DNA from: a virus
Reading direction: 5' to 3' (one strand)
Virus record (IMG/VR): IMGVR_UViG_3300036886_000363
Coordinates: 19,437-83,436 of that record
Length of the DNA: 64,000 nt
Shown: positions 1 through 13,328 of the stretch, piece after piece
How the letters are laid out: the number at the start of each line of letters is the position of its first letter
How positions within the stretch are numbered: the first letter of the stretch is position 1
The notes under the pieces: model-generated
Seen by the model: only the letters and a program-made list of their open reading frames with translations
Databases searched by the model: none
What the model was told of the DNA's origin: nothing
Program-made: the position numbers and the translations under genes

Positions 1-2821
1 CCCAGTCTACAGGGAAGAAGAATGTTTTCTCCTCTATATAATTCAGATGAGAAGCAGGGATATCCAGAGCCAGTAGTTTGTCTATATCGGGAAACATGAG
101 ATCAAGATTTCCCCTGAGCAATTTTGGATACATGAGTTTCTTATCAGTGAATACTCTGAAGGAAAAATACTTCCCGACATCTTTTGCAGGCTCATCCCCG
201 AAGGCGCCGATCTCCGTTAACATTTTTTCCAGCTTGCTCATATTCTCTGTTCCCGTCCGGACATTAAAGAAGCCCTGTAGTTGGTTATTGCTCCTTTTTC
301 TTGCAGTCATACATTCAACAGCTGTCACTTCTCCAATTCCCTTGATCTCTTTGAAAGGGATATAAAGAGTATGATTTTTGGCAATCCATTTATCAGCATC
401 GGAAACACCGACCTTTGGCAGGACAATCTTTAGTCCCAGACGATAAGCCTCTTCGATCAGCTCTATTTTTTTTCTTGCATCTGAAGATCCATATGTCAAA
501 TTTGCACAAATAAATTCTGTCGGGTAATGATATTTAATAAAAGCAGTCCAATATCCGATCATTGCATATTCAACAGAGTGAGACCTGTTGAAAGAATAGT
601 TGGCATGCTTTTGTAATGCAGTCCAGAATTCTTCTGCCTCTCGATCCGAGAAGGTCTTCAATTTTCGACAGCCTTCTATAAACGAATCTTTGAAGGGTTT
701 GAACTCTTTTGCATCTCGTTTCTTGCCTATGATCTTGCGGATCTTATCGGCCGTTGCATAGGATAGGCCGGCAACCTTATGAATGACTTCCATGATCTGC
801 TCTTGATATGTTATGATTCCGTAGGTGTTTGCAGTGATCTCTTCATATATGGGATGTTTCTTTTCCCACCTCTCCCCTCTTTTTCTCTTGATGAAATCAT
901 CTGTCATGTGGGAATCAAATGGCCCGGGCCGGACAAGTGCAATGATATCTCCCAGAAGACTAAAATTATCTGCTCCAATATCTTTTGCAAGTTTTGATGT
1001 CGCCCATGCACTAAATTGAAAGACACCAACATTGTTGCCCGCAGATATCTGAGCAAGGACATTTTTATCATCGAGGGGGATCTTCTCAAAAATGATATCT
1101 ATACCATGATTCTGTTTGATAAGGTGTTTTGCCTCACTCAATATTGATAATGTATTCAGTCCGAGGATATCCAGTTTCATCAGCCCGACATATTCGGAGT
1201 CTTCCATATCCCAATTTGAAACAACATTTCCTGATCTCATAACGAGAGTGCATCGGGTTCCCTGAGTCAGATCATCCGCAGAGACAACAACAGCTGCGGC
1301 GTGCTGACCTGTTCCCATAACCTGCCTTTCCAGTTTGATTGCATGCTTGATGACATCTGGATACTTGCGGGCAAATGCCTTGCCTTCCTCTGTATCTCTT
1401 ATCGCTGATTCAATGATATCTTCATCTGGAGTTGTCTGGGCTGCGTTGTCTATAACTTTTGCAAATCCGTCAACTTCTTTATTCTCGATGTCAAAGACCC
1501 GTGCGACATTTCTAATCGCTGCCCGGCCTTTCATTGTCAGGAAGGTGGATAGAGACGACACATTTTTTCTGCCATATAATTCTTCAAGGTGATCTCTGAT
1601 TAAATGTCTCTTGCGATCTTCAAAATCCAGATCGATATCCGGAAGATCAATTCGTTCATCTGATATGAAGCGAGAAAACAAAAGGTTGAATTTAATCGGG
1701 TCGACGGTAGTGATTCCCAGCAGATAAGCAATCAGTGATCCGCCTACACTACCGCGACCCGGGCCAACCATGATATCATTCTTTCTGCACCACTCTGTTA
1801 ATTCCCAGACAATCATGAAATACGGTGCGAACTTTTTGTCATGAATAATTTGCCATTCTTCAATCAGTCGATCTTGATATTCCCTTTTTCCTTCTGGGAA
1901 AATCTCAAAGAGTTTTTCCCTACAAATATCCATGAGGAATTCTTCCGGATCAGCATTTTTATATGCCGGAACCTTTGGCAAATAGATGTCTTGTTTCTTG
2001 ATTGAGAATCCTTTGCATTTTTCTGCTATCTCTATTGTTGACTCAAGAGATTCTTGAATATCGTAATCGCTGAGGATTTCTTGTTGCCTGAAAGCATCGA
2101 TCATTTCCTTTTCTGATCTCAGATGTAATCCATTGATTTCAAATTTATATCGATTTGTATCTGTCCATTTCGCCTTTGTCTGTATGGCAAGCAGTACTTC
2201 ATGAGTCTGATCGTCATCGGCATTTATATAATGACAATCATTTGTAGCCACCAAACGGATATTCCAATTGTCTGCCGTCGAGACACAGAAAAGATTTGTC
2301 TGTTTTTGCCCGGCGAAATTGTGAGGCATTACTTCAAGGTAAAGATCATCTCGAAGCTTCTTATTTAGATCACGGAGAAGATCGATTCCTCCCGGGAGAT
2401 TGACAAAGGAGCTGTGACAGCCGGTCATGATAACCATCCCCTCACAAAATTCATAAAGCAGATCGAAGTCAATCCGGGGACGATGATAGAATCCTTCAAG
2501 ATTGGCAATGGTCAGCATCTTGCACAGATTCTGGAATCCCTGCTCATTCTTTACAAGCAGGGTTACATGCCCTCTGACCTCTTTTTCTTTGATTTCCAGC
2601 TTCTCGACGATATAGGCTTCGCATCCGAGGATTGGAATGATGTTTTGCTTTTTACAAGCTTTTTGGAATTTGATAAGACCGTCAATATTTCCATGATTTG
2701 TTAGTCCAAGATATCTCTGGTCAAGTTCTTTGGCTCTCTTGACATATCCTTCAGCCGTTCCAAATCCATCAAGCAAACTGTATTCATCATGCACATGCAG
2801 ATGACAAAAGTTATCGCTCAT
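1..2821 (-). CDS. dnaE: DNA polymerase III alpha subunit (3' end runs off the window)
   Basis: Manual translation from ATG 2821: MSDNFCHLHVHDEYSLLDG (PHP domain), later GPGRGSVGGSLIAYLLGIT and DLPDIDLDF catalytic motifs. Absent from the ORF track, presumably because it has no stop in the window. Confidence 0.95.
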   Translation of the reverse strand, partial: MSDNFCHLHVHDEYSLLDGFGTAEGYVKRAKELDQRYLGLTNHGNIDGLIKFQKACKKQNIIPILGCEAYIVEKLEIKEKEVRGHVTLLVKNEQGFQNLCKMLTIANLEGFYHRPRIDFDLLYEFCEGMVIMTGCHSSFVNLPGGIDLLRDLNKKLRDDLYLEVMPHNFAGQKQTNLFCVSTADNWNIRLVATNDCHYINADDDQTHEVLLAIQTKAKWTDTNRYKFEINGLHLRSEKEMIDAFRQQEILSDYDIQESLESTIEIAEKCKGFSIKKQDIYLPKVPAYKNADPEEFLMDICREKLFEIFPEGKREYQDRLIEEWQIIHDKKFAPYFMIVWELTEWCRKNDIMVGPGRGSVGGSLIAYLLGITTVDPIKFNLLFSRFISDERIDLPDIDLDFEDRKRHLIRDHLEELYGRKNVSSLSTFLTMKGRAAIRNVARVFDIENKEVDGFAKVIDNAAQTTPDEDIIESAIRDTEEGKAFARKYPDVIKHAIKLERQVMGTGQHAAAVVVSADDLTQGTRCTLVMRSGNVVSNWDMEDSEYVGLMKLDILGLNTLSILSEAKHLIKQNHGIDIIFEKIPLDDKNVLAQISAGNNVGVFQFSAWATSKLAKDIGADNFSLLGDIIALVRPGPFDSHMTDDFIKRKRGERWEKKHPIYEEITANTYGIITYQEQIMEVIHKVAGLSYATADKIRKIIGKKRDAKEFKPFKDSFIEGCRKLKTFSDREAEEFWTALQKHANYSFNRSHSVEYAMIGYWTAFIKYHYPTEFICANLTYGSSDARKKIELIEEAYRLGLKIVLPKVGVSDADKWIAKNHTLYIPFKEIKGIGEVTAVECMTARKRSNNQLQGFFNVRTGTENMSKLEKMLTEIGAFGDEPAKDVGKYFSFRVFTDKKLMYPKLLRGNLDLMFPDIDKLLALDIPASHLNYIEEKTFFFPVDW

Positions 2822-2980
2822 CGATTCTCTCTTTCTTGATTTGTTCTAATCGATATTTGAATTCATCTTGGAATTCTCCACCGATGCAAGAATAATGAAG
2901 GTGTAAAGGCGGTCAGCCTGATAACCCATAAGTGTCTTCTCACGAGGAACGGTTATATTTCCTGCCAAGTAGATTTTCAT
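2811..2980 (-). pseudogene. Mini-gene paralog 5 (MKIYLAG...RLYTF), apparently frameshifted
   Basis: Frame 0 stops at 2846 (44 aa). The -1 frame continues HYSCIGGEFQDEFKYRLEQIKKERIDER to a stop overlapping the dnaE start. Confidence 0.6.
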
Positions 2981-3144
2981 TGTTTACTACATCCCAGAGC
3001 ATAGAAGGCTCCAACCGATGATATGATTATTCCAAGAACGTACTTGCCGGGAAATTCAGGAGCAAAACTAACCAAAGTTAATCCTGCAAACATAGCTATC
3101 GTTCCGAGTGCTTCTTTTTGATATGGAGATATTTTTGTTTTCAT
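2977..3144 (-). CDS. 55-aa membrane protein with two hydrophobic segments
   Basis: MKTKISPYQKEALGTIAMFAGLTLVSF...VLGIIISSVGAFYALG; ATGA-coupled to the next gene. Confidence 0.6.
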   Translation of the reverse strand: MKTKISPYQKEALGTIAMFAGLTLVSFAPEFPGKYVLGIIISSVGAFYALGCSKQ

Positions 3145-3151
3145 AATTTTC

Positions 3152-3339
3152 TGGAGGAGACGGGCATCTTCGGAAGCCTTTCACAATCAGGATATAACCG
3201 GCATCTGACTGCTCTTTGAAGCGCATACTATTTTGGAGCATAGACATAGCCTTATTAGTCGCTCCCCGGTCACTATTAGATGTTTTCAGACCGTCTCGCT
3301 ATCGCTCCCACTCAAAGTAGTTTTTCTTGTCCCGTCTCC
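3152..3339 (-). ncRNA. Putative 188-nt structured ncRNA with terminal stem and 3' UCCA
   Basis: GGAGACGGG/CCCGTCTCC closing stem followed by TCCA; nested stems GGAGC/GCTCC, ATAGC/GCTAT, CGGTC/GACCG, GCAGTCAG/CTGATTGT; no credible ORF. Confidence 0.5.
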
Positions 3340-3346
3340 ATCTGTC

Positions 3347-3420
3347 TGGAGGCGGTGAAGGAGGGTCACAGTTTTCCTCCTGCTGTAACAGGATTTGCTC
3401 CGCATCTCCCTCCCACCGCC
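3347..3420 (-). ncRNA. Putative 74-nt tRNA-sized ncRNA with acceptor-like stem and 3' UCCA
   Basis: GGCGGTG/CACCGCC 7-bp stem followed by TCCA; GGAGGG/CCCTCC extension; internal TCCTG/CAGGA hairpin; no TTC T-loop. Confidence 0.5.
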
Positions 3421-3428
3421 ATAAAATT

Positions 3429-4448
3429 TTAACCCGGTTTGAGAGCCATTAGGTGCTGGAAATTCCCGGCATCAAATAAGGCTCGATTGTCTTTGTAGAT
3501 CATCTTGGAGCTGTGTTCAAGTATCTTCAAGAGGAACATTGGATTAATCGAGAAGATGATCTTGTCATGAGAGGATATGATGTCTGTTTCATTTTCGATC
3601 TCGCCGACCTCACTCTTGCCGCGACACCTGATTTTATTCTTCTCAATCTCGATCTCCACAAGTTTATCAGTATCAAATTCCCCTTCTGTAAGAATCGCAG
3701 CTGTCTCAATCATTGCCCCGATATCTTTTGGCAGATCAATCTGAAGCCCCTCAAAGTTTTCAAAATACTTTGAGTAGTCATTGAATTTGCCTTCGACCAT
3801 CCGGCAACAAAAGAGGACATCATCTTTTGTTGCGAAGAATGCCCATCCTCCGGTGACACAATAATCGACTACCGGAAATTTGATAAGCTCTGTGATCGCA
3901 GTTGCCGGGATCAGGATCGAACAATTCATTGCCTTCTTCATCTTGTATTGGCTGATCCTGAGATCATCGGAAGACATTATATAATCGTCTTCAATGAGCA
4001 GACAGGTCAATGATGGGTGGCTCATGTCTTTGGAAGCCGAGAAGGAACACAGCTCCGCGCCGGCGACAAAATCTTCCGGCAATGGTTCCAGTTTCTTCAT
4101 GATCGCTCCCAGCTCCAGAGTCTTTATCATATCGAGGACCTTCTCTCCAGATGAAGTGGCAAGGCTCGCTTTTGTCTTCGCACTCTTGATCTTCAATTTG
4201 TCCTCTTCAAGGGTTAGTTCGACATCCTCAGCCGACATCCCTGCCATGATCTTATAGAATTCATTGGCAGAGATCGAGCATTTAAAATCTGAATCGAAGG
4301 GGTGGATAATACAAATCTGATCGTTGTATGTCATAACATCCTGGCCAGTAAAAATGAAATGTGTTGCCGCCTCGACGATCTCACGGCGGGCTAATCCGGG
4401 TTTTATTGCTGTTAGAGCTTTTACTAATTCTCCCCTTTTTACTTTCAT
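3429..4448 (-). CDS. DNA polymerase III beta (sliding clamp)-like protein
   Basis: About 340 aa with clamp-like motifs (SSDDLRIS, ILIPATAITEL, RMVEGKFNDY, FSINPMFL); RBS GGAGG before ATG 4448; near dnaE. Confidence 0.8.
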   Translation of the reverse strand: MKVKRGELVKALTAIKPGLARREIVEAATHFIFTGQDVMTYNDQICIIHPFDSDFKCSISANEFYKIMAGMSAEDVELTLEEDKLKIKSAKTKASLATSSGEKVLDMIKTLELGAIMKKLEPLPEDFVAGAELCSFSASKDMSHPSLTCLLIEDDYIMSSDDLRISQYKMKKAMNCSILIPATAITELIKFPVVDYCVTGGWAFFATKDDVLFCCRMVEGKFNDYSKYFENFEGLQIDLPKDIGAMIETAAILTEGEFDTDKLVEIEIEKNKIRCRGKSEVGEIENETDIISSHDKIIFSINPMFLLKILEHSSKMIYKDNRALFDAGNFQHLMALKPG

Positions 4449-4465
4449 AACTCCTCCCTTTATTA

Positions 4466-5272
4466 TTATTGGCTGGCAAAAACCGATTGCCATCCTTCCC
4501 TATCTTTATTTGTTCTACCATGACATGGATGACACAATGTAATAAAATTATCAAAACAGTCGTTTTTCTTATCATAATCTATATGATGAATGACCAATCC
4601 TTGTTTCAAAAGCATCCCTTCTAATTCATTTTCATGAACAAAACATAACTGACATGCATTCCCATCCCTATCTTTTATTATTTTTTTTAAGTTTCTTGAC
4701 CAATTTTGAGAATATGGTTCTTTTGAAATGCCTCCTTGCCAATTAGAATTATTTTCTCCAGTATGTTTTTTCTTAACTTCAGGTTTGTTTTGAGCTATTT
4801 TCATGTTTGCTTTTGCTTCTTCTGATTTTGGTTTCCTCATGTTTTGTTTTGCTTCTTCTGATTTTGGTTTCCTCATGTTTTGTTTTGCTTCTTCTGACCG
4901 CCTTTGCCCAAAATTACCTTCTTTTATTTTATTCCTCGTTTCCTTAGAACAACGTTTAATTCTCGCATCAGTTTCAGCGGTTAATCCCTTTTTTGAAGAA
5001 ATTAATCCTTTTCTTGATTTTCCACTATTTTTACCATATGCAGCAACTCTTTTGTCCGTCTCTTTTGTAAATCCTTTATTCCAAGGTATTTGAGATCCTT
5101 TCATTCCTTTATTCCAAGGAGTCCGTCCCAAATTATGAGAATTTCCTTTTGTGTGATGATTATGAATATATATGTTCCAATTATAAGGAGGAATTTTACT
5201 TCTCTCAACAGGATATCCACAATTACATTTACATAAAGGAGGTATATTTTGAGACTCTCGCTTGACTTTCAT
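4466..5272 (-). mobile_element. Free-standing HNH homing endonuclease with NUMOD3-type repeats
   Basis: CKCNCG, PWNKG and SEEAK repeats, RDGNACQLC...VIHHIDYDKKN...LCHPCH; AT-rich relative to its neighbours. Confidence 0.85.
4802..4897. repeat. 36-bp coding tandem repeat (SEEAKQNMRKPK, ~2.7 copies)
   Basis: Direct repeat visible in both DNA and protein of the HNH gene. Confidence 0.85.
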
Positions 5273-5442
5273 TTCTTCCTCCTTAGTTTTGATGATGCGA
5301 TTCCTGTTGTAACATATTCCGGCAGATATTCCTTCTGCAGGTCTTTCAAATGGAAATAGGAATAGAGCCTGCTCTTGACTGATTGTTTGGTGAGGACGAC
5401 CGCTTGATTATCCTCCATCCATGTTGCGAAGTAGACTTTCAC
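5269..5442 (-). CDS. Mini-gene paralog 4 (57 aa, intact)
   Basis: GTG start coupled to the upstream stop; MKVYFATW...SRLYSYF. Confidence 0.75.
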   Translation of the reverse strand: MKVYFATWMEDNQAVVLTKQSVKSRLYSYFHLKDLQKEYLPEYVTTGIASSKLRRKK

Positions 5443-5606
5443 TTCTTCTTCCTTTTTATCTTCTTTATCTTCTTCCAGATATGGAGAACCCGGCGACATT
5501 GATTCTTTGGATCGAGGGCATAGGAAAACATACGATATAACACTCCTGATTTTCTCAGTTGATTTGAATATTTTGGCTCGCCGCCTCCGACAAAGTAGAT
5601 TTTCAT
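5439..5606 (-). CDS. Mini-gene paralog 3 (55 aa, intact)
   Basis: MKIYFVGGGEPKYSNQLRKSGVLYRMFSYALDPK...KRKKK; overlapping start/stop coupling on both sides. Confidence 0.75.
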   Translation of the reverse strand: MKIYFVGGGEPKYSNQLRKSGVLYRMFSYALDPKNQCRRVLHIWKKIKKIKRKKK

Positions 5607-5756
5607 TTATACCTTTTTATAAGATGTTCCCATTCAGCTTTGCCATCTCCAGTTTGGATTTCAAAAAAGCTGACGAGTTTTGGTTATATACTTCATCCAA
5701 ATTTCAAGTCTTCCAATATTTTGAATTCCTGACATCCCCGCAAAGTAGATTTTCAT
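5603..5756 (-). pseudogene. Mini-gene paralog 2, frameshifted
   Basis: MKIYFAGMSG...MKYIT stops at 5661; the +1 frame continues KLVSFFEIQTGDGKAEWEHLIKRYK to a TGA coupled to the next ATG. Confidence 0.65.
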
Positions 5757-6703
5757 TTGAAGCCGAAGCCTTCCACCTTCTTGATCTTGAAAGCCCATGG
5801 CCATGGAGGCAGATTGTCCTGGAGATCGAGAAAGTATATGATATTCAGTTCATCTCTGAGACGATAGTCATTGCTCAATCCGGCTGTCTTAATTAATTCT
5901 ATGATCCCGTCTTCTTTCCAAGCCGTGATCGGTTTATATCCCATGCCCATCTCGACATATTCTCTCTGGGCGTCTGCAAGCTCTTTCCCATACCAGCGCT
6001 CGCCTTCTTTAGGTTTGTAAGTTTTGGGATCTTCCTGCCGGAACTCACTTTCACCCATCTCAAATCCTTTGGCCATAAAGTACTCGAGGATTTCTTTCTG
6101 CTCCATCTGAGAATATGTCGAGAAGTGCTGTCCTTCCTCTTTGTCTTTAGGAGATCGATTGGAGACATTGATCGTCATCGAGTTCTGCATATAATCATAC
6201 TTGCCCATTTTTTTCTTTGGGACATAGACAGCTCCGAAGCGCCCGGTCAAAACCCAACTTGTCGAATCAACAGAATACCATGGAAATCTGAGCATGAGAT
6301 CAAGAGAGGTCATACCAAAGCCATGGATTTTGACTTTTGGCATTCCCTTGTCGTCACAGATAAATTTGGAGAAGAGATTGTCGAGCCATTCTATTAATGA
6401 GACATTAGGGATCGGGACCATGCCTCCCAGAGAGACATAATCATAATTGTCCAGGTAATTTGTGAGGTAGTTTAAAGGCTCGCCATAGTGAAAGCAGGGA
6501 ATCGGCTTCAATCCGGCATCCTCCATGATCTTCTGATTCTTTAATGTCTGGACGGGATCACCGATTGCATCAAGGACAGAATAGTGATCGAGATAATCAA
6601 TGTGATCCTTGATGAATTGGATATACTCTTGAATATTGATCTCGATCTTTTTTGACCATGCAGAGTATGCACCCGAGTCTAAAAACAATTCCACCTTTTT
6701 CAT
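5753..6703 (-). CDS. TGT-fold (DpdA-like) putative DNA 7-deazaguanine transglycosylase
   Basis: LFLDSGAYS, VLDAIGD, PCFHYGE, SLGGMV, KIHGFG, WYSVDSTSW motifs; sits in a folE/queC/queD/queE cluster; RBS-like GAGG before ATG 6703. Confidence 0.75.
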   Translation of the reverse strand: MKKVELFLDSGAYSAWSKKIEINIQEYIQFIKDHIDYLDHYSVLDAIGDPVQTLKNQKIMEDAGLKPIPCFHYGEPLNYLTNYLDNYDYVSLGGMVPIPNVSLIEWLDNLFSKFICDDKGMPKVKIHGFGMTSLDLMLRFPWYSVDSTSWVLTGRFGAVYVPKKKMGKYDYMQNSMTINVSNRSPKDKEEGQHFSTYSQMEQKEILEYFMAKGFEMGESEFRQEDPKTYKPKEGERWYGKELADAQREYVEMGMGYKPITAWKEDGIIELIKTAGLSNDYRLRDELNIIYFLDLQDNLPPWPWAFKIKKVEGFGFK

Positions 6704-6884
6704 TTTGCCTCTTTCGTAGACCTCCCAAAGTTTTGTCGCTGGTTGGAGCTTACCTACTTCAATGCTATAATATGACATAAGTCTTGATGTCATACCGACA
6801 CTTGCCATCCATCTTTCTTTCAAGCAAATCGATTTCGGCAACTCCACCCGGACGATCTGCATATGAAGCAAGATAGAGTTTCAT
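6704..6884 (-). pseudogene. Mini-gene paralog 1, frameshifted, second half in frame with the DpdA-like gene
   Basis: MKLYLASY... stops at 6765; the +1 frame gives ERWMASVGMTSRLMSYYSI and reads on into MKKVELFLDSG. Confidence 0.6.
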
Positions 6885-7798
6885 CTTTGTATCCTTGCCA
6901 TGAATTCATCTTTGCAACCGTTCCGATTTTCCGCAAAGTATCCCCGAACGGCGATGGGTTCATAAGGGGAATTCCACTTTTTGACTCCTCTCATCTCTTT
7001 GCAAAGATGCCGGGCCTTCATGACCAGTACTTGCCCGAGTGGCTTTGTCACTTCTTCAAAATAGTCAACAACATTATTTATCAATCTCTCTGCAATTTGA
7101 AGTCTCCCAGAATAATAGTCAATGACCCGCGCGATCTTGCTTGTTCCCATGATCCATTTATCTGGAATGTAAGCATAATAATATTCTCCGAAGAAAGGAA
7201 TCATGTGATGTTCACAATAAGAAAAGAAGTATCCTGAGTCAATGAGCATCTCATTATAAATGACTCCATCGATGCCATTTTCAAAAAGAGTTACTTTTGG
7301 CATGCGGGCAGGATCATAAGCGCAGAAGAATTCATTATACATCTTTGCGATTCTCTGGGGAGTATCTTTGAGCCCGGGCCGATCAGGATCTTCTCCGATA
7401 AATTCGAGGATGCGGACAATGTTATCTTCGATGGTGGAATCTGCATCACTGACTTCCCAGAAGTATTGAATCCAACCATCAACTTGATTTGCATGATAGG
7501 TTGGCAAGGAATCTATAGGAGTTGTTGATTTGATATGCAGGCAGGCAAAATCGTGTTGTGAATATCTCTTTCTTGTCTGCCCACTATCAACAACATCATC
7601 GACAACAAGAGTCTCTCCCACCCATGCGATTTCTGTCATTGGAATTTGTAATAGATGAGACAGATCTATCGCCAATGGGATTCCTCCCCGTGGAACACCA
7701 TAGATATTTTTGTATGTTCCCCCTGCCTGCATGATTTGCTGTGCAAGCTTTGCCGCATCTCTATAAAAGTCGTCCAGACTATAGATAATGTCTATCAT
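6881..7798 (-). CDS. folE: Phosphoribosyltransferase - GTP cyclohydrolase I fusion
   Basis: N-terminal YGVPRGG and LVVDDVVDSGQT (type I PRTase); C-terminal GEDPDRPGLKDTPQR, SYCEHHMIPF, RLQIAE, HLCKEMRGV (FolE). Confidence 0.9.
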   Translation of the reverse strand: MIDIIYSLDDFYRDAAKLAQQIMQAGGTYKNIYGVPRGGIPLAIDLSHLLQIPMTEIAWVGETLVVDDVVDSGQTRKRYSQHDFACLHIKSTTPIDSLPTYHANQVDGWIQYFWEVSDADSTIEDNIVRILEFIGEDPDRPGLKDTPQRIAKMYNEFFCAYDPARMPKVTLFENGIDGVIYNEMLIDSGYFFSYCEHHMIPFFGEYYYAYIPDKWIMGTSKIARVIDYYSGRLQIAERLINNVVDYFEEVTKPLGQVLVMKARHLCKEMRGVKKWNSPYEPIAVRGYFAENRNGCKDEFMARIQR

Positions 7799-8472
7799 TT
7801 CTTCACCGGGCTTTCATATTGAATAGGGTCGGTTCTTCCGATATTTGCAAAAGCCTCAAGTCTTTCCTGACAAGAGCCGCATTTCCCGCAGCTTAGAAAT
7901 TGATCTTTGTAACAAGTTCTGGTCAGCTCGTAGGGAACAGCAGGAGAGATTCGATATCCCAATTTTAAGATTGAAGTTTTGTTATCGTAAAGAAAGGGAG
8001 CTGAGAGCTGCACCCTTGCTCCGGATCCATCGACGACTGCTTTCTGCATCGAGAAGATAAACTCTGGTCTGCAATCTTCATAAATGGCATGATCGCCTGC
8101 ATGAACTCCAACTGCAACAATATCGGCTCCAATCGACCATGCATATCCCATCATGATTGCGACGAAGATAGTGTTTCTGCCGGGGACGACTGTCTGAGAC
8201 ATCGATGCATCGTTATAATGACCTTCGGGGATATCTCCGCCTGTCTTGAGAAGATTGGATTTGAAGAGCTGGCCGATGAAGGGGAGATCGATGTTGACAA
8301 TTTCAGGCAGCTCATAAAACTTCGCGATCTTTTCAGCTGCCTCTGTCTCGTATTTGTTGTGCTTGCTCCCATAATTAAAATTGACAGGGTGTATCTCCGC
8401 TCCGAGATGTCTAAAATACCCACAAAGAGTAGCACTGTCCATACCGCCGGATAGACCTAACACTACTTTCAT
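7795..8472 (-). CDS. queC: 7-cyano-7-deazaguanine synthase
   Basis: SGGMDS, VPGRN, YEDCRPEF, TRTCY...CGKCGSCQER. Confidence 0.95.
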   Translation of the reverse strand: MKVVLGLSGGMDSATLCGYFRHLGAEIHPVNFNYGSKHNKYETEAAEKIAKFYELPEIVNIDLPFIGQLFKSNLLKTGGDIPEGHYNDASMSQTVVPGRNTIFVAIMMGYAWSIGADIVAVGVHAGDHAIYEDCRPEFIFSMQKAVVDGSGARVQLSAPFLYDNKTSILKLGYRISPAVPYELTRTCYKDQFLSCGKCGSCQERLEAFANIGRTDPIQYESPVKK

Positions 8473-8507
8473 ATCTCTGCCTCCTATATAATGTTTGATA
8501 TTTGATT

Positions 8508-8540
8508 ATATTATATCATGATTTTTTGCTGTGCGATAAA
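8508..8540 (-). promoter_or_regulatory. Class A promoter (ATCGCA...CATGATATAATAT)
   Basis: Motif recurs at about 9244, 13345 and 17908, each upstream of a minus-strand gene; contains a perfect TATAAT. Confidence 0.7.
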
Positions 8541-8542
8541 AT

Positions 8543-8575
8543 AAAAAGGGGGAGCATCAATGTGCTCCCCTCTCT
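8543..8575 (-). terminator. Intrinsic terminator
   Basis: GGGGAGCA/TGCTCCCC hairpin followed by a T-run on the minus strand, downstream of the 8602 gene. Confidence 0.8.
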
Positions 8576-8601
8576 TCAGATAGAGGCACAATCACGAATA
8601 T

Positions 8602-9174
8602 TTACTTTATGCTGTATTCACCCTTCTCACTCTTGACGAATTTGACCTTCTTTTCCTTTTCCATGCGGGTCTGTTTCTTGCCGCCGATCTGGACTTGAAC
8701 CGTCTTTGCCATCTTCGCCTCTTCCCTGTCAGGAAACTTCTTGACAAGCGCGGCCAGGATCTTCTCTTTGGTGATCGGACCTTTCTCTTTGATGATCTCA
8801 AGAATTGATTCGATGACTCCCGGGCCTTTGTCAGCTTTCTTCTCGCCCTTCTTGCCTGCTGCCTTTTTCTTTCCCTTTGTCTTGCCGTCGCCTGCTTCGG
8901 GTGTGCCTGCTTCAGCTGCCTTTGCGGCTTTCTCTTCCATCTCGAGAACGAGGTTGTTGAATGCCAGAGCTTCTTTCGGGCCGGGGAACTTGCCTTCGAC
9001 ATCGGGGATAACTCCCATCGCGTCCATGAACTTTTTGAGGATGACTTCTTTCTCTGCTCCAACGAGTTCGATCAAGGCCAACTTATTGGCTTCGAGGATC
9101 CCACTTTTGTTGAGGGCGGTTACTGCCACTCTCAAATCCTTAAACTTTACATCAACCACTGCTGTCTTTCCCAT
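8602..9174 (-). CDS. Lys-rich basic putative DNA-binding protein
   Basis: K/A-rich linker and a C-terminal winged-helix-like segment; has its own promoter, AAGGAG RBS and terminator. Confidence 0.6.
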   Translation of the reverse strand: MGKTAVVDVKFKDLRVAVTALNKSGILEANKLALIELVGAEKEVILKKFMDAMGVIPDVEGKFPGPKEALAFNNLVLEMEEKAAKAAEAGTPEAGDGKTKGKKKAAGKKGEKKADKGPGVIESILEIIKEKGPITKEKILAALVKKFPDREEAKMAKTVQVQIGGKKQTRMEKEKKVKFVKSEKGEYSIK

Positions 9175-9243
9175 AATCTTTTCTCCTTTCATCTTTTGTC
9201 TGGTTTGAATTTCTGTATCGCCTGTACCTCTCTGATCTTGAAT

Positions 9244-9275
9244 ATATTATATCATGCGGTTTGGCCAATGCGATA
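9244..9275 (-). promoter_or_regulatory. Class A promoter
   Basis: TATCGCATTGGCCAAACCGCATGATATAATAT on the minus strand. Confidence 0.7.
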
Positions 9276-9300
9276 TTTTTGTTTGGTGTCGGTTTGTACT

Positions 9301-10863
9301 CTACAAAACATCAAGAAATTTATGTAGTTGTAGAGAAATTACCACTCCTTTTTTCTTGAGCATGTTCACTTTGTCCATCCATCCTACAAGGATTTTTGGA
9401 TCGAGCTTGTCATGAGAGGGTGAAAAGGCAAATCGACAGCCTTGATGTCTGAAAAGATGGACAATATAAAGAGCATCTTCGAAGTCAGCCCAATCTGCAA
9501 TAACAAATTTAATGAAAGATTCTCTGCCTAAGTTTTCAAAGTTTTTAACCCACTTATAATGACTCATTCCGCTTGATGGACCTTTCCAATCTGCGACATA
9601 ATGGATCCCCGGATATGGATGCATATAGATCGAGCCATTGGTTTCAATCGAGACTTGAAATTTATCCATGAAAAGTTCTTTAGCAACCATGATAATATCT
9701 GATTGCAGAAGGGGCTCGCCTCCTGTGATAGTAATGTTTGTATTCCCGAAGGAGACAGTCTTTTTGAGAACATCATCGATTGACATCTCTTGCCCGGCGG
9801 TCTCATCTTGAGCATAAGGGGTATCGCAATTATGAACCCACATATAATCAAGCAAAAAACTATTATAAGGAGAACAAGACAAATTATACACTTTCAATAG
9901 ATTTGGCCTCAGAGAAGGAGGATAATTATTCCTATTAATTTCCTTGATTGAAAGGATTTTAAGTCCATTTATTGCAGATAATTTTTTGCCGTCTTTTCTA
10001 TTATTTTTCCAAAAGTTATATCCTATTTCATGGGTAGAATAATGACAAGATTCACATTCAACTTTTAGATTTTCTGAAGAATCATTTTTTCTATTGCTGT
10101 CTTTATGATGAACATCTAAAGACTTCTTTCTTTTGCAAATAGAACATTCTTTTATTTTTCCTTCTTTTATATCTTGTTTTAATTTATCATAATTGGGTGT
10201 TTTTGATCCTCCACTCCAATTAGGATTTTTGTCTCCCATTTTTGGTAAGGATTGTTTTTTTCTTAATTCTTCTTTTTGTTTTTTTGAAAGAGAATTATAA
10301 GGAGAAATATAAGTTCCTTCTTCTTGTTTCTTTTTAATTGTGTTGCTAATTTTTTTTCCAGAGATACTATAGTTAGTGTTTTCAATAGATTTTTTCTTAA
10401 TATCATTGTCTTTCATCGGATTTTTAATTCCTGTTATTCTAAATGATAATTTATCCTTGAAATTAGAATGATAGATTTCGTTCCCTATTTGTAAATCTTT
10501 AGCTTTCTTTATTCCTTGAGTTGTAAAAAAGGGATGCTCTTCAGTTACATAATACTCGTGTTTTTCTATTTTTATTCTTAACCAAGAATTAACCTCTCTA
10601 ACAATGATATTTGTAATTTCTGTTTCTACCAAATTCTTTTCTTTATCAAAGGTCAATAATTTATCTCCAACTTCAACATTATATATTTTTTTGTTGGGTT
10701 TGGAAGACAGAATGACTTTAGGGACATGGCGTCCTGGCATAACCCCAAAACAGTAACTACATTTCAGATTGCAGCCCGCGAGACGGATGAAGGTACAAAG
10801 ACTCCCTTGATGTGAGGCAGAGATTTCCCCATTGATGCTACTAAAAATACTATGAACTTTCAT
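9301..10863 (-). CDS. queE: 7-carboxy-7-deazaguanine synthase (radical SAM), intein-interrupted
   Basis: IFSSINGE, FIRLAGCNLKCSY|...|CDT, ITITGGEPLLQ, IETNGS, SLQLHK. Confidence 0.9.
   Translation of the reverse strand: MKVHSIFSSINGEISASHQGSLCTFIRLAGCNLKCSYCFGVMPGRHVPKVILSSKPNKKIYNVEVGDKLLTFDKEKNLVETEITNIIVREVNSWLRIKIEKHEYYVTEEHPFFTTQGIKKAKDLQIGNEIYHSNFKDKLSFRITGIKNPMKDNDIKKKSIENTNYSISGKKISNTIKKKQEEGTYISPYNSLSKKQKEELRKKQSLPKMGDKNPNWSGGSKTPNYDKLKQDIKEGKIKECSICKRKKSLDVHHKDSNRKNDSSENLKVECESCHYSTHEIGYNFWKNNRKDGKKLSAINGLKILSIKEINRNNYPPSLRPNLLKVYNLSCSPYNSFLLDYMWVHNCDTPYAQDETAGQEMSIDDVLKKTVSFGNTNITITGGEPLLQSDIIMVAKELFMDKFQVSIETNGSIYMHPYPGIHYVADWKGPSSGMSHYKWVKNFENLGRESFIKFVIADWADFEDALYIVHLFRHQGCRFAFSPSHDKLDPKILVGWMDKVNMLKKKGVVISLQLHKFLDVL
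9829..10752 (-). mobile_element. Intein (308 aa) with HNH endonuclease
   Basis: Starts with Cys, block B VTEEHPF, ends VYNLS...WVHN before a Cys; internal CSIC...VHHKD.N..N...CESCH; AT-rich. Confidence 0.9.
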
Positions 10864-10864
10864 T

Positions 10865-11041
10865 TTATGCTCTCCCTATTATTTGCTTTTCTACTCCCTT
10901 TTGTACTCTTTTAATATACTCCATAGTTTTTACTTGATTTGCCAGTATGTCTAACCAAGGCTTTAGTTCACAATTGTCCTTGTGTTTTTCTAACATTTCT
11001 TTTGATTCTCTAATGGCATCTTCTATCGACTCATTTTTCAT
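10865..11041 (-). CDS. Hypothetical protein (58 aa)
   Basis: Manual translation MKNESIEDAIRESKEM...; fills the gap between neighbouring genes. Confidence 0.5.
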   Translation of the reverse strand: MKNESIEDAIRESKEMLEKHKDNCELKPWLDILANQVKTMEYIKRVQKGVEKQIIGRA

Positions 11042-11234
11042 TTTTGTGTCCTCTCCTCAGACAATCTTTCGTGATACAATTGCCCTCTGGATCAACCTGA
11101 ATATGACCGCATCCTTCGCAAATTACACACGCAGCCATATCCTTTGCCCAGTCCTCAGGTTTGGTTATTCCTTTCATATCTCCAAAATCTTGCCTGAAAA
11201 TTTTCTCAGAACATTGCTTGCAATAATCGCTCAT
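11031..11234 (-). CDS. Small Cys-rich (Zn-binding) protein
   Basis: MSDYCKQC...CEGCG...C...C; ATGA-coupled start. Confidence 0.6.
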   Translation of the reverse strand: MSDYCKQCSEKIFRQDFGDMKGITKPEDWAKDMAACVICEGCGHIQVDPEGNCITKDCLRRGHKNEK

Positions 11235-11440
11235 GATTTGTGACTCCTGATTCCCCTGACTTGTTGAATGGCAAACCATACTGAGACAAAAAGCATTCCC
11301 CATTGCTCGGCTGTCCACTCTGCATATAACCAAAATGGTGCCCCGCAAAGTCCGCAGATGAATCCTTGCCTATATCTCTTCCCTGCCAGAAGCCAGATCG
11401 AGAGACAAGAACAAATTACAATCCCTGTCTGACAGATCAT
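11231..11440 (-). CDS. Small membrane protein, PnuC-half-like
   Basis: Three hydrophobic segments, GFICGLCGAPFW...QWGML pattern. Confidence 0.5.
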   Translation of the reverse strand: MICQTGIVICSCLSIWLLAGKRYRQGFICGLCGAPFWLYAEWTAEQWGMLFVSVWFAIQQVRGIRSHKS

Positions 11441-11799
11441 GGGATTACCTCGCAGAAACTATTCTCTGTTTCCTTGAGAATAATCTTTTGGATATAAACA
11501 CCCTGATTCATGAAAGGGCCAATCAACATATTAACAATATGGTTGGCCAGCAATTCGGATGTTGGAATAAAATGGACAACCTCATTGAGAACCTTATGAT
11601 CGAATTGATCGATGACATTCTCTTCAACAATCTTTTTCAGATCGGCATAATCCATTACCATCCCATTTTGAAGCATACCTGCAATTTCAACGATCAACTC
11701 CCAGCGATGGCCATGGAGATTCTTGCATTTGCCCGGGTGATCCGGCAGGAAATGTGCCGCCTCAAAAGTAAACCTTCTACTTATTTTTGTTTTTGACAT
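11437..11799 (-). CDS. queD: 6-carboxytetrahydropterin synthase
   Basis: FEAAHFL, CKNLHGHRW, GMVMDY, FDHKVLN, PTSELLA, LKET. Confidence 0.95.
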   Translation of the reverse strand: MSKTKISRRFTFEAAHFLPDHPGKCKNLHGHRWELIVEIAGMLQNGMVMDYADLKKIVEENVIDQFDHKVLNEVVHFIPTSELLANHIVNMLIGPFMNQGVYIQKIILKETENSFCEVIP

Positions 11800-13328
11800 T
11801 AATCCTCCTCCTTTCTATTCCACTCTGAATCGAGAAATGGCTGGCCAAGTTTTAATTGTTGCAAGACGATGACCTGCCCTTTCTCTATTCCCTCATCATG
11901 ACGATGAACGAGAATTTCAAACCTTATCATCCCCCGTTTTTTCTCTTGCTCTGTCTGGTTAAGAGTTATGTCCATATCAACATGCTGGAGCTTCTTGATA
12001 TTTCCACCAGTATGTTTTTGCTTCATGTTTTTACTTTCTTCTGATCCTCTATTTCCTTGATTGCAATTAACAAAGAGAAGATGCAATAATCCTGCCAGAC
12101 CTTTTGATCTCTTCCATTTACGATTCTCATCTTCAAGCTCATTTGCTACTTCTGCAGCTGTGATATCGAGATAATCAAAGAGGACGACATCGGCATCAAA
12201 TCCTTGTCGTCTTAAATTCTCAAGCTCTGCAATCGCTTCATCTAATCCGGCAGTGAAAGCCGGAAAGCAACGAAGGCGAAGATTGTCTCCAAAAAGTTTC
12301 TTGAATGTTTTGACCTTCTTTTTAATTGCCTCCGGAGATAGATTTTCCTTTTGGTATTGTGTTTGCCACCATGATGTCGGTTGATAATCTTTTGTTTTTA
12401 ATTTGCGACATGCAGTGCATGGCTTGTAATCCATATCTTTTGTATAGGTAGGAAGTTCATCTGCACTATTCAAGAGAGTGATTTTGTTTTCTCTTTCTGT
12501 TTTAGTGCAGGTTCCTTTTTGATTTCTCTTGCAGTCAAAGACAGGGAAGGCATATTCTCCTCCGTTCTCTGCCATTGCCGTCATTTTTTTGTAGACTCTT
12601 TTTTTATAAACAGTTTTATTCATCTCAAATGAGAAAATAGCAACCTTGAGACCAGCGCAAAGAGCATGGAACCCGATTTCCCATTCATAGAAAGACTTCC
12701 CCTTTTTTGCGGAACCCATGATTGAGACAAACCAGCCTCTCTGCAACCATCCTATCAGATCGCCCAGAGGCCCGGGCAGCTTGAACAATTTGTTTTCTTC
12801 ATCTTCATCAAAAGTTTTATCTATCTCCGACTCATCAAGAGGATTTATCCATTGACTCACATTCTGGGCAACTTTGCCATAATTAAAAAGTGTCTCCTCT
12901 GCTTTTGTAAAATTGCCTTCGAGTCTGTATCCCTCAATTGTCTTTTGTAAAATTTCCAGACTTCGATCTCTGCAGAAAGTAACGGTCTCATCAAATCGCA
13001 ACTCTTTATTAAAAGGGTAAGAATCTTGATTGTCAGAAATATATTGGTCAGAAAGACTTTGAAGGAAAGACTCCATGATCTCCAGTTCTGCTGCTTTGAG
13101 CTTTGCCGTCTTCGCATAAAAGATCGACTCAAAATCTTTCCCGGGAGCAGCTTTATATTTTTTATAATACTCGAGGATCCATTGTGAGATTTTTCGAATA
13201 TAATCTACCTTGAAATGTTTGGGATCGATCATTAAGTGAGTATCTCTGAGATAGTCAGAGCTGACAATCATTGCTGTCAGAATGCGTTTCTCGATATCAG
13301 AATTTACTTCGATGCGGCTGTATTCCAT
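11799..13328 (-). CDS. DnaB-like replicative helicase
   Basis: Walker A GSAKKGKS, FSFEM, Walker B VLFDYLD, NQGNR. Confidence 0.85.
   Translation of the reverse strand: MEYSRIEVNSDIEKRILTAMIVSSDYLRDTHLMIDPKHFKVDYIRKISQWILEYYKKYKAAPGKDFESIFYAKTAKLKAAELEIMESFLQSLSDQYISDNQDSYPFNKELRFDETVTFCRDRSLEILQKTIEGYRLEGNFTKAEETLFNYGKVAQNVSQWINPLDESEIDKTFDEDEENKLFKLPGPLGDLIGWLQRGWFVSIMGSAKKGKSFYEWEIGFHALCAGLKVAIFSFEMNKTVYKKRVYKKMTAMAENGGEYAFPVFDCKRNQKGTCTKTERENKITLLNSADELPTYTKDMDYKPCTACRKLKTKDYQPTSWWQTQYQKENLSPEAIKKKVKTFKKLFGDNLRLRCFPAFTAGLDEAIAELENLRRQGFDADVVLFDYLDITAAEVANELEDENRKWKRSKGLAGLLHLLFVNCNQGNRGSEESKNMKQKHTGGNIKKLQHVDMDITLNQTEQEKKRGMIRFEILVHRHDEGIEKGQVIVLQQLKLGQPFLDSEWNRKEED

Follow-up and report, generated by a model that had tools for sequence, protein, structure and literature searches.

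The window analyzed here, a stretch of 64,000 nucleotides, comprises bases 19437–83436 of the 83,436-bp virus record IMGVR_UViG_3300036886_000363, whose completeness is rated at about 90%. Its minus strand carries every gene in the first 24 kb, among them a gene for an enzyme of the DpdA/tRNA-guanine transglycosylase (TGT) kind and, around it, an array of five mini-genes. A sequence-only reading of this DNA had proposed that the enzyme gene lacks its beginning and that the mini-genes encode swappable subunits which supply it. The enzyme core is called the body below and the mini-gene products heads; together they probably form a DNA-modifying enzyme that is divided between separate proteins. 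All positions are those of the window, and all features lie on its minus strand unless stated otherwise.

A headless DpdA1-type core and five mini-genes

The body is encoded at 5753–6703, the final 316 codons (6703–5753) of a 372-residue open reading frame (ORF) that follows mini-gene 1, and is the only copy in the 83,436-bp record. It begins with MKKVE, directly followed by LFLDSG, and an AAGAGG sequence lies 5 nt upstream of the start, which bears out the claim that the gene has its own ribosome-binding site and starts five residues before LFLDSG. Its proposed DpdA/TGT-like nature also holds: the core is a DpdA1-type transglycosylase by its match to phrog_887, "queuine tRNA-ribosyltransferase" (E = 1.5e-57, 196.6 bits), and by 43% identity to the DpdA of phage CAjan over core residues 4–214 (tblastn, E = 4e-45). 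The same search matched 245 phage records, including, at this identity over the same residues, CAjan, Seurat and Queuovirinae of the BASEL collection, the last annotated as "7-deazaguanosine inserting enzyme". Pfam returned no family at E ≤ 1, TGT included, for the core or the five mini-ORFs, and a PDB sequence search with the 372-residue ORF gave one irrelevant match (E = 0.63). The NCBIfam model of bacterial DpdA reached the core with E = 0.0014 and 17.5 bits, its cut-off being 200.

Both candidate catalytic aspartates lie in the core, in LFLDSG and in SVDST. The D, S and G of LFLDSG (core residues 6–11) do not vary across alignments of 27 and of 118 sequences. The Asp of SVDSTSW (D146), which is also invariant, stands on the last barrel strand ahead of a long insertion and is probably equivalent to Asp256 of DpdA, as judged from strand order rather than from residue-level superposition. 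The CxCxxC zinc motif is absent from the window protein and from all 120 best homologs, so the zinc site does not define the phage DpdA1 branch; inspection of the CAjan DpdA sequence by eye shows no CxCxxC either.

The five paralogous mini-genes, of the pattern MKxYxA...RLxSY, start at 6884, 5756, 5606, 5442 and 2980, and their ORFs, starts and end motifs are as the sequence-only reading described them. A scan of the full record for the start motif found these five copies, one unrelated match on the plus strand and nothing more. In a six-frame search with a profile built only from the 24 N-termini of fused relatives, seven of the ten top matches were pieces of the five copies (best E = 0.0014, the rest 0.015–1.9); the shortness of the module and the spread of three copies over two frames make the matches individually weak. 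The motif scan, the profile ranking and the strand bias in 80 related loci rule out chance ORFs. PHROGs returned nothing for the heads except an unnamed family for head 4 (0.034), and the ESM Atlas no usable match for head 4. Outside the array, a 44-residue frame near 16999 matches the head profile weakly (E = 0.11). Each start had been said to overlap the stop upstream; this is so for copies 1, 2, 4 and 5, with ATGA or GTGA, and for copy 3 only if copy 2 is read in its +1 frame. The starts of the HNH endonuclease gene and of dnaE overlap their upstream stops in the same manner.

Head 1 (6704–6884) is the enzyme's own β1-α1-β2-α2 module with a linker. Positions 6822–6884 are in the frame of the ATG at 6884 and positions 6704–6817 in that of the core, in agreement with the claim that the second half of copy 1 shares the core frame; a tandem 4-nt duplication at 6814–6821, GAAA GAAA in the coding sense (TTTC TTTC on the plus strand), puts the head +1 out of frame, and the ATG frame as recorded ends at 6765 after 39 residues. 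With one GAAA unit removed, the frame stays open without interruption from 6884 to the end of the core, and the repaired copy is the N-terminus of the enzyme itself, as had been proposed. Head 1 resembles the heads L003:4699 and L022:5788 of related loci and the N-terminus of the homolog P0009. Head 2 (5603–5756) has a +1 frameshift at the A4 run 5678–5681 and is dead; its second frame closes with an ATGA that overlaps the start of head 3, and its parts align to the intact head L026:6981 over residues 1–22 (15 identical) and 28–49 (11 identical). Head 3 (5439–5606, 55 residues) is intact and the most diverged copy, with V replacing the A that is usual at position 6, and with a tail rich in Lys as in L026:7136 and L011:6954. 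Head 4 (5269–5442, 57 residues), also intact, starts with GTG and belongs to the "ATW" head subfamily. Head 5 (2811–2980) carries a −1 frame break at 2896/2897 in the record, and its two parts can be aligned with L002:8369 and L009:8428, both of them intact heads. Copies 1, 2 and 5 are thus frame-broken in the record. Programmed ribosomal frameshifting was considered for heads 1 and 2 and rejected as the main reading, since the break sites differ between the copies, the break of head 1 is simply a 4-nt duplication, and there are intact orthologs.

At least part of the stretch is present in 19 public runs and half or more of the sampled words in 15, which are peat metagenomes by label, none of them recorded as RNA. 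Four runs, none flagged as a possible source, were compared at the level of contigs only. The GAAA duplication of head 1 is found in all three spanning contigs (X12 rec 8, X13 rec 15 and X14 rec 24) and the break of head 2 in four of four. Head 5 has an extra base in all three runs with cover, which restores an intact 56-residue head whose end overlaps the dnaE start. The five swappable subunits of the sequence-only reading come down to copies 3 and 4 in the record, plus copy 5 in other samples, and the array here is therefore not one of five working alternatives.

The contig X13 rec 16 comes from a diverged strain, with 9 differences in 136 nt, and its alignment ends at 6817; seven of the eight loose letters beyond agree with the sequence that follows a single GAAA unit, which hints that this strain may still have the fused gene. 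Seven substitutions at 6712–6779 in the same strain produce only two residue changes in the core frame. Head 4 differs between strains by seven synonymous and three non-synonymous changes and by an in-frame 3-nt insertion near its end. An X12 variant contig skips 5441–5509 (67 nt) at the 3′ terminus of head 3; strains thus differ in the tail of this head.

Heads as the first quarter of the barrel

A protein search returned 1215 homologs. Among the best 120, the stretch before the LFLDSG strand is shorter than 15 residues in 84, 15–29 residues in 5, 30–44 in 7 and at least 45 in 24. The long homologs open with MKxxLAG ... RLxSYY, the pattern of the mini-genes, and CAjan DpdA has 57 residues before FLDSG with the same two-strand pattern. 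The mini-proteins are homologous to this fused N-terminus of about 50 residues, which CAjan DpdA1 and roughly one in four of the closer relatives possess, as had been expected of them.

The fold was tested on a model of the fused relative P0093, to which the window core is 57% identical. The AlphaFold2 model (mean predicted local distance difference test score, pLDDT, 87.4) has two head strands and six parallel body strands. Foldseek matched it to ArcTGT 1j2b (E = 2.3e-5) and also to bacterial TGT and DpdA 7ui4, and the best match by VIA-align is DpdA 7UI4 (Z 17.3, root-mean-square deviation 3.3 Å over 262 residues), with residues 1–326 laid onto 4–409 of the 7UI4 chain; both comparisons confirm, on this model, the (β/α)8 triosephosphate isomerase (TIM) barrel of the TGT/DpdA superfamily. 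According to the DpdA structure paper, Asp95 of the DSG motif ends strand β3, and the insertions Ins1 and Ins2 lie in the β1/α1 and β2/α2 loops (PMC10164549). With P0093 aligned from its residue 1 to residue 4 of 7UI4 and DSG at the end of β3, the body gene indeed lacks the strands before the DSG motif. In a second fused relative, P0134, modelled from a deeper alignment, the head adjoining the body has a pLDDT of 86–98 and runs strand-helix-strand-helix into the DSG strand.

Because the fused N-termini are homologous to the mini-proteins and the module falls at β1-β2 in the fold comparison, each mini-protein is a copy of β1-α1-β2-α2, and the 316-residue core, which holds β3–β8, the β8/α8 insertion and α8, is a barrel without its first quarter. 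The earlier proposal that a mini-gene is a barrel unit thus stands as far as homology to the strands before DSG goes; the unit is a two-strand module and not a single β-α-β.

Heads and bodies recur together in related phages. A scan of viral contigs found 583 core relatives, and the best 80 loci, with flanks of up to 6 kb, were examined further. In 68 of these 80 loci the head profile found 149 matches (independent E < 0.01), all on the enzyme strand and at most six per locus, and a census of head-start motifs counted 244 on the enzyme strand against 32 on the other. With a wider motif, 147 intact stand-alone, 25 fused and 27 frame-shifted heads were found. The enzyme is fused in 25 loci and headless in 55; at least one intact stand-alone head accompanies 48 of the 55 headless bodies, and extra stand-alone heads occur in 21 of the 25 fused loci. 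Related phages therefore do carry the variable arrays that a survey had been suggested to look for, and the pieces are separately encoded, co-occur and are conserved, both in these 48 headless loci and in the positions of the head subfamilies, each of which keeps its place among loci whose cores are just 40–67% identical. The "ATW" cluster of head 4 has 38 members, mostly directly 3′ of the core gene, and M1, A6, R25, L26, S28 and Y43 are invariant in its alignment of 32 rows. The segment between the two strands varies from 10 to 26 residues (median 18 in 159 heads).

The family is large. In addition to the 583 core relatives in viral contigs, a profile of 144 heads matched 921 representative proteins, each standing for a cluster, out of 1.84 billion (E ≤ 1e-3), and of the 150 matches listed 136 are 45–94 residues long; a headless body with stand-alone heads is a common layout in uncultured phages. 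Met occurs within 17 residues before the DSG strand in 28 of 30 fused homologs, compared with about 38% expected from composition, which fits a putative internal start for a headless body. Thirteen of the longer sequences were inspected. They include double heads and bodies preceded by two, three or four heads in one chain; tandem heads stand before one body in P0128, P0217, P0134, P0184, P0137 and P0235, head-head proteins without a body are P0124–P0126, and every internal head keeps its Met. P0189, another of the thirteen, is an unrelated repetitive protein. In P0134, which has three heads, the two extra heads have a pLDDT of 42–50 and only the one adjacent to the body is confidently modelled. 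Circularly permuted forms did not appear: in a set of 389 proteins collected for other ends, none shows a head-like motif C-terminal to the core.

Two further observations concern stand-alone heads. Many of them (L016:7051, L017:4450 and others) have ..NENI.. after the second helix, followed by a Ser/Arg/Lys-rich tail. At L030:6921-7112 the head ORF continues into a motif like the C-terminal GLCNDY.QRD helix of the core, as if a deletion had joined a head to the end of a body.

Docking, decay and frame switching

A complex prediction for the core with head 4 gave an interaction score (ipSAE) of 0.89 (0.91, 0.89 and 0.88 in the separate runs), compared with 0.01 for the best control. Partner pLDDT was at least 83 and at least 96% of the contacts were common to the runs. 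The docking mark is reached by 58 of 80 solved complexes and by 2 of 110 mismatched pairs, counts that are only rough because own alignments were used. Head residues 24–29 (RLYSY) are predicted to contact core residues 4–9 of the DSG strand, and head residues 2–4 core residues 144–146 of the SVDS strand, giving the β8-β1-β2-β3 order of a closed barrel. The earlier proposal that the mini-genes complete the barrel in trans is to this extent supported, by a predicted docking of head 4 that closes the barrel.

These results suggest a 7-deazaguanine DNA transglycosylase of the DpdA1 type that would be a naturally split TIM barrel. The 316-residue body would bring β3–β8, both catalytic aspartates and the large β8/α8 insertion, and the missing quarter, β1-α1-β2-α2, would come as a separate protein of about 55 residues, the head, which would dock between β8 and β3 and close the barrel. 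A small family of diverged heads would be provided by the same translationally coupled operon; head 1 would have been the enzyme's own N-terminus until the 4-nt duplication severed it, and the likely working partners would be the intact heads, namely 3, 4 and, across most of the population, 5. Division of DpdA into a body and separate head proteins is favored as the best explanation of the locus as a whole. A head in trans is, with similar likelihood, needed for the enzyme to work, because the whole preQ0 pathway is kept and the single body has its own head cut off.

Binding need not mean catalysis. The heads could bind the body as regulators, one of them productive while the others compete, time the activity or chaperone the body. 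In favor are the same docking prediction, the many heads per locus that compete for one body, the extra stand-alone heads in 21 of the 25 fused loci, and multi-head fusions in which only the body-adjacent head is confidently modelled; but no head subfamily is marked as inactive, since the candidate catalytic residues are all in the body, and this explanation is judged quite improbable. Least probable is a target other than the body, with the heads acting as decoys for host TGT/Dpd proteins or forming a small DNA-binding family unrelated to catalysis. The Lys/Arg/Ser-rich tails of many stand-alone heads and the very large size of the family would suit such a role, whereas the heads are homologous to the β1-β2 of the enzyme itself, lie beside a dpdA-like gene on the enzyme strand in 68 of the 80 loci chosen for their core, and gave a score of only 0.01 in the docking control in which an unrelated protein replaced the body.

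Several observations weigh against a split enzyme. Three of the five heads are broken in the record, none at a long repeat, so that part of the array looks like decay, and head 3 scores poorly against the head profile (E = 0.34). Among the 55 headless loci, six have no head within 6 kb and one has only a shifted head. In the first fused model, that of P0093, the head reaches a pLDDT of only 50–66. The docking result may reflect likeness to solved single-chain TGT/DpdA structures and speaks for compatibility rather than for binding. Finally, several head tails resemble a degenerate β3 strand (LFLDSGAFSAW), which is expected of leftovers of partial duplication and points to an origin by partial duplication that reached into β3.

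Much of this would follow if the mini-genes were decaying debris, left by repeated partial duplication and recombination of the dpdA 5′ end, with a body that works alone or a DpdA that is crippled. The broken copies in the record, the 27 shifted heads among 199 in relatives, the β3-like tails, the strong divergence of head 3 and an HNH homing-type endonuclease gene within the array all agree with it. Against it stand the 147 stand-alone and 25 fused heads that are intact, compared with 27 shifted, and the conservation of subfamilies and their positions across such diverged cores. In addition, head 4 varies between strains mainly at synonymous sites, most cores are headless and these are highly conserved, and the full preQ0 pathway is retained. 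Decay as the whole explanation is thus considered unlikely, if somewhat less so than a regulatory role, and a split DpdA remains the preferred account.

If DpdA is split in this way, different heads would probably give isoenzymes that differ mainly in the β1/α1 and β2/α2 loops on the catalytic face. Because the heads differ most in these loops, they might, speculatively, change the target context. Short repeats could toggle them. In relatives, nine of eleven shifted heads read base by base break inside an (AG)n tract, which encodes Arg-Glu repeats after strand β1, for example (GA)8 in L027 and (AG)7 in L069 and L044. The (AG)n tracts of relatives span 8–17 nt. Head DNA, 32 kb in all, holds 40 tracts of at least four units and the remaining 871 kb of the loci 31, and 19 of the 36 heads with a tract of at least 8 nt are in frame and 17 out. 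The window heads hold no repeat tract beyond the two GAAA units and the A4 run, and population variation, as seen in contigs only, consists of one variant-strain contig with apparently one GAAA unit and of head 5, which differs by one base between the record and three runs.

It is a tentative possibility, rated well below the split itself, that each head reprograms the guanine contexts, or the 7-deazaguanine inserted, of the shared body and that short slippery sequences toggle heads in the population, the (AG)n tracts of relatives and the GAAA duplication and single-base indels of the window being putative examples. If so, a single core could cover many restriction-site contexts, and the system would parallel, in a phage, the phase-variable specificity of restriction-modification and would also be a living example of TIM-barrel assembly from quarter-barrel parts.

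Genomic neighborhood and comparison with known systems

The array is embedded in an operon-like row of genes for preQ0 synthesis and replication. QueC is encoded at 7795–8472; the genes for QueD and a QueE-like radical-SAM protein adjoin it on the upstream side, and after it comes a phosphoribosyltransferase-FolE fusion at 6881–7798, in which PF00156 (2.3e-6) stands in front of GTP cyclohydrolase I (PF01227, 1.5e-47). The preQ0 pathway enzymes FolE, QueD, QueE and QueC are all present (PF06508 2.3e-53, PF01242 1.1e-32 and Radical_SAM 2.2e-9, with the PF01227 match above). The QueE-like gene, at 9301–10863, is broken near its start by about 300 residues, and this insert, with a PT-HINT match below the cut-off (2.3e-5) and HNH-like Cys/His motifs, looks like an intein with a homing endonuclease, a candidate assignment from motifs. 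A terminator-like site lies ahead of QueC at 8570–8549, and from 8549 down to 2700 no further one was found.

Between head 4 and the clamp gene lies the HNH endonuclease gene (4466–5272; best match to PHROG HNH families 4.8e-12), which is context and outside the enzyme. It may be absent or different in some strains: loose contig ends fall at 4540–4598 in X12 and X14, and X14 has no cover at 4718–4991. The sliding-clamp gene follows, down to 3429; the gap at 3145–3428 has no ORF and no tRNA according to ARAGORN, which found none in window positions 1–12000. A 55-residue hydrophobic ORF (3144–2977) stands between the clamp gene and mini-gene 5, and dnaE, from 2821 onward, follows mini-gene 5. 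X12 holds a diverged strain in which 2980 is directly followed by 3345; the 364 nt left out contain the hydrophobic ORF, and further small indels occur at 2935 and 3426. Blastn of 2700–7000 against phage records gave two short matches, both in the clamp gene.

7-Deazaguanine DNA modification, whose signature enzyme is DpdA, is a major phage defense against restriction and Cas9. The target motifs of DpdA differ between phages. If the split is real, the conserved head subfamilies make specificity open to direct tests, DpdA genes without a head in metagenomes are not pseudogenes, heterologous tests need the mini-genes, which gene callers often miss, and the locus is one of the rare examples in nature of a TIM barrel assembled non-covalently with a quarter-barrel unit. 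In the literature searched on DpdA, supplements not covered, neither a split DpdA nor head mini-genes are described; PMC6884629 makes no mention of split, truncated or N-terminal, and a search on split TIM barrels gave nothing useful.

The closest known counterpart is the DpdA of Escherichia phage CAjan (Seuratvirus, Queuovirinae), annotated as a queuosine tRNA-ribosyltransferase, which, with those of its relatives 9g, Seurat and iggy, belongs to the same family and the same PHROG as the core. DpdA1 enzymes are reported to insert preQ0-type bases into phage DNA at short motifs. The two loci have a neighborhood of FolE, QueD, clamp and polymerase in common, and CAjan DpdA shows the head pattern of the mini-genes before FLDSG. 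By contrast, it is one chain of 306 residues with the head fused, and the small genes beside it are not heads; in the window the head is detached and multiplied, and β1-β2 and β3–β8 do not lie in a single chain.

The DpdA of Salmonella Montevideo (7UI4), the best structural match, shares a (β/α)8 barrel that lacks the N-terminal lid found in tRNA TGTs, a β3-terminal Asp and, as judged from strand order, an Asp ahead of a large β8/α8 insertion; unlike the window enzyme it is a single chain, and it needs DpdB (PMC10164549). Sequence similarity to it is marginal (the NCBIfam match at E = 0.0014), and the phage family is without the CxCxxC zinc motif.

Two further systems are related by principle. 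In phase-variable restriction-modification, repeat-switched Type III mod and Type I hsdS genes serve bacterial methyltransferases, and switching is proven. Both there and here, one catalytic machine would be combined with alternative, switchable specificity parts, and heads of relatives have frame-breaking short repeats; here, however, the parts are quarter-barrel pieces of a phage base-exchange enzyme, the window has no long repeat, and switching and specificity are putative. In laboratory fragment complementation of TIM barrels (split HisF, half- and quarter-barrels), a (β/α)8 barrel is rebuilt from separate pieces cut between β/α units. Those pairs are engineered, whereas in the phage enzyme the 2+6 split would have arisen in nature, and a multigene family would encode the small piece.

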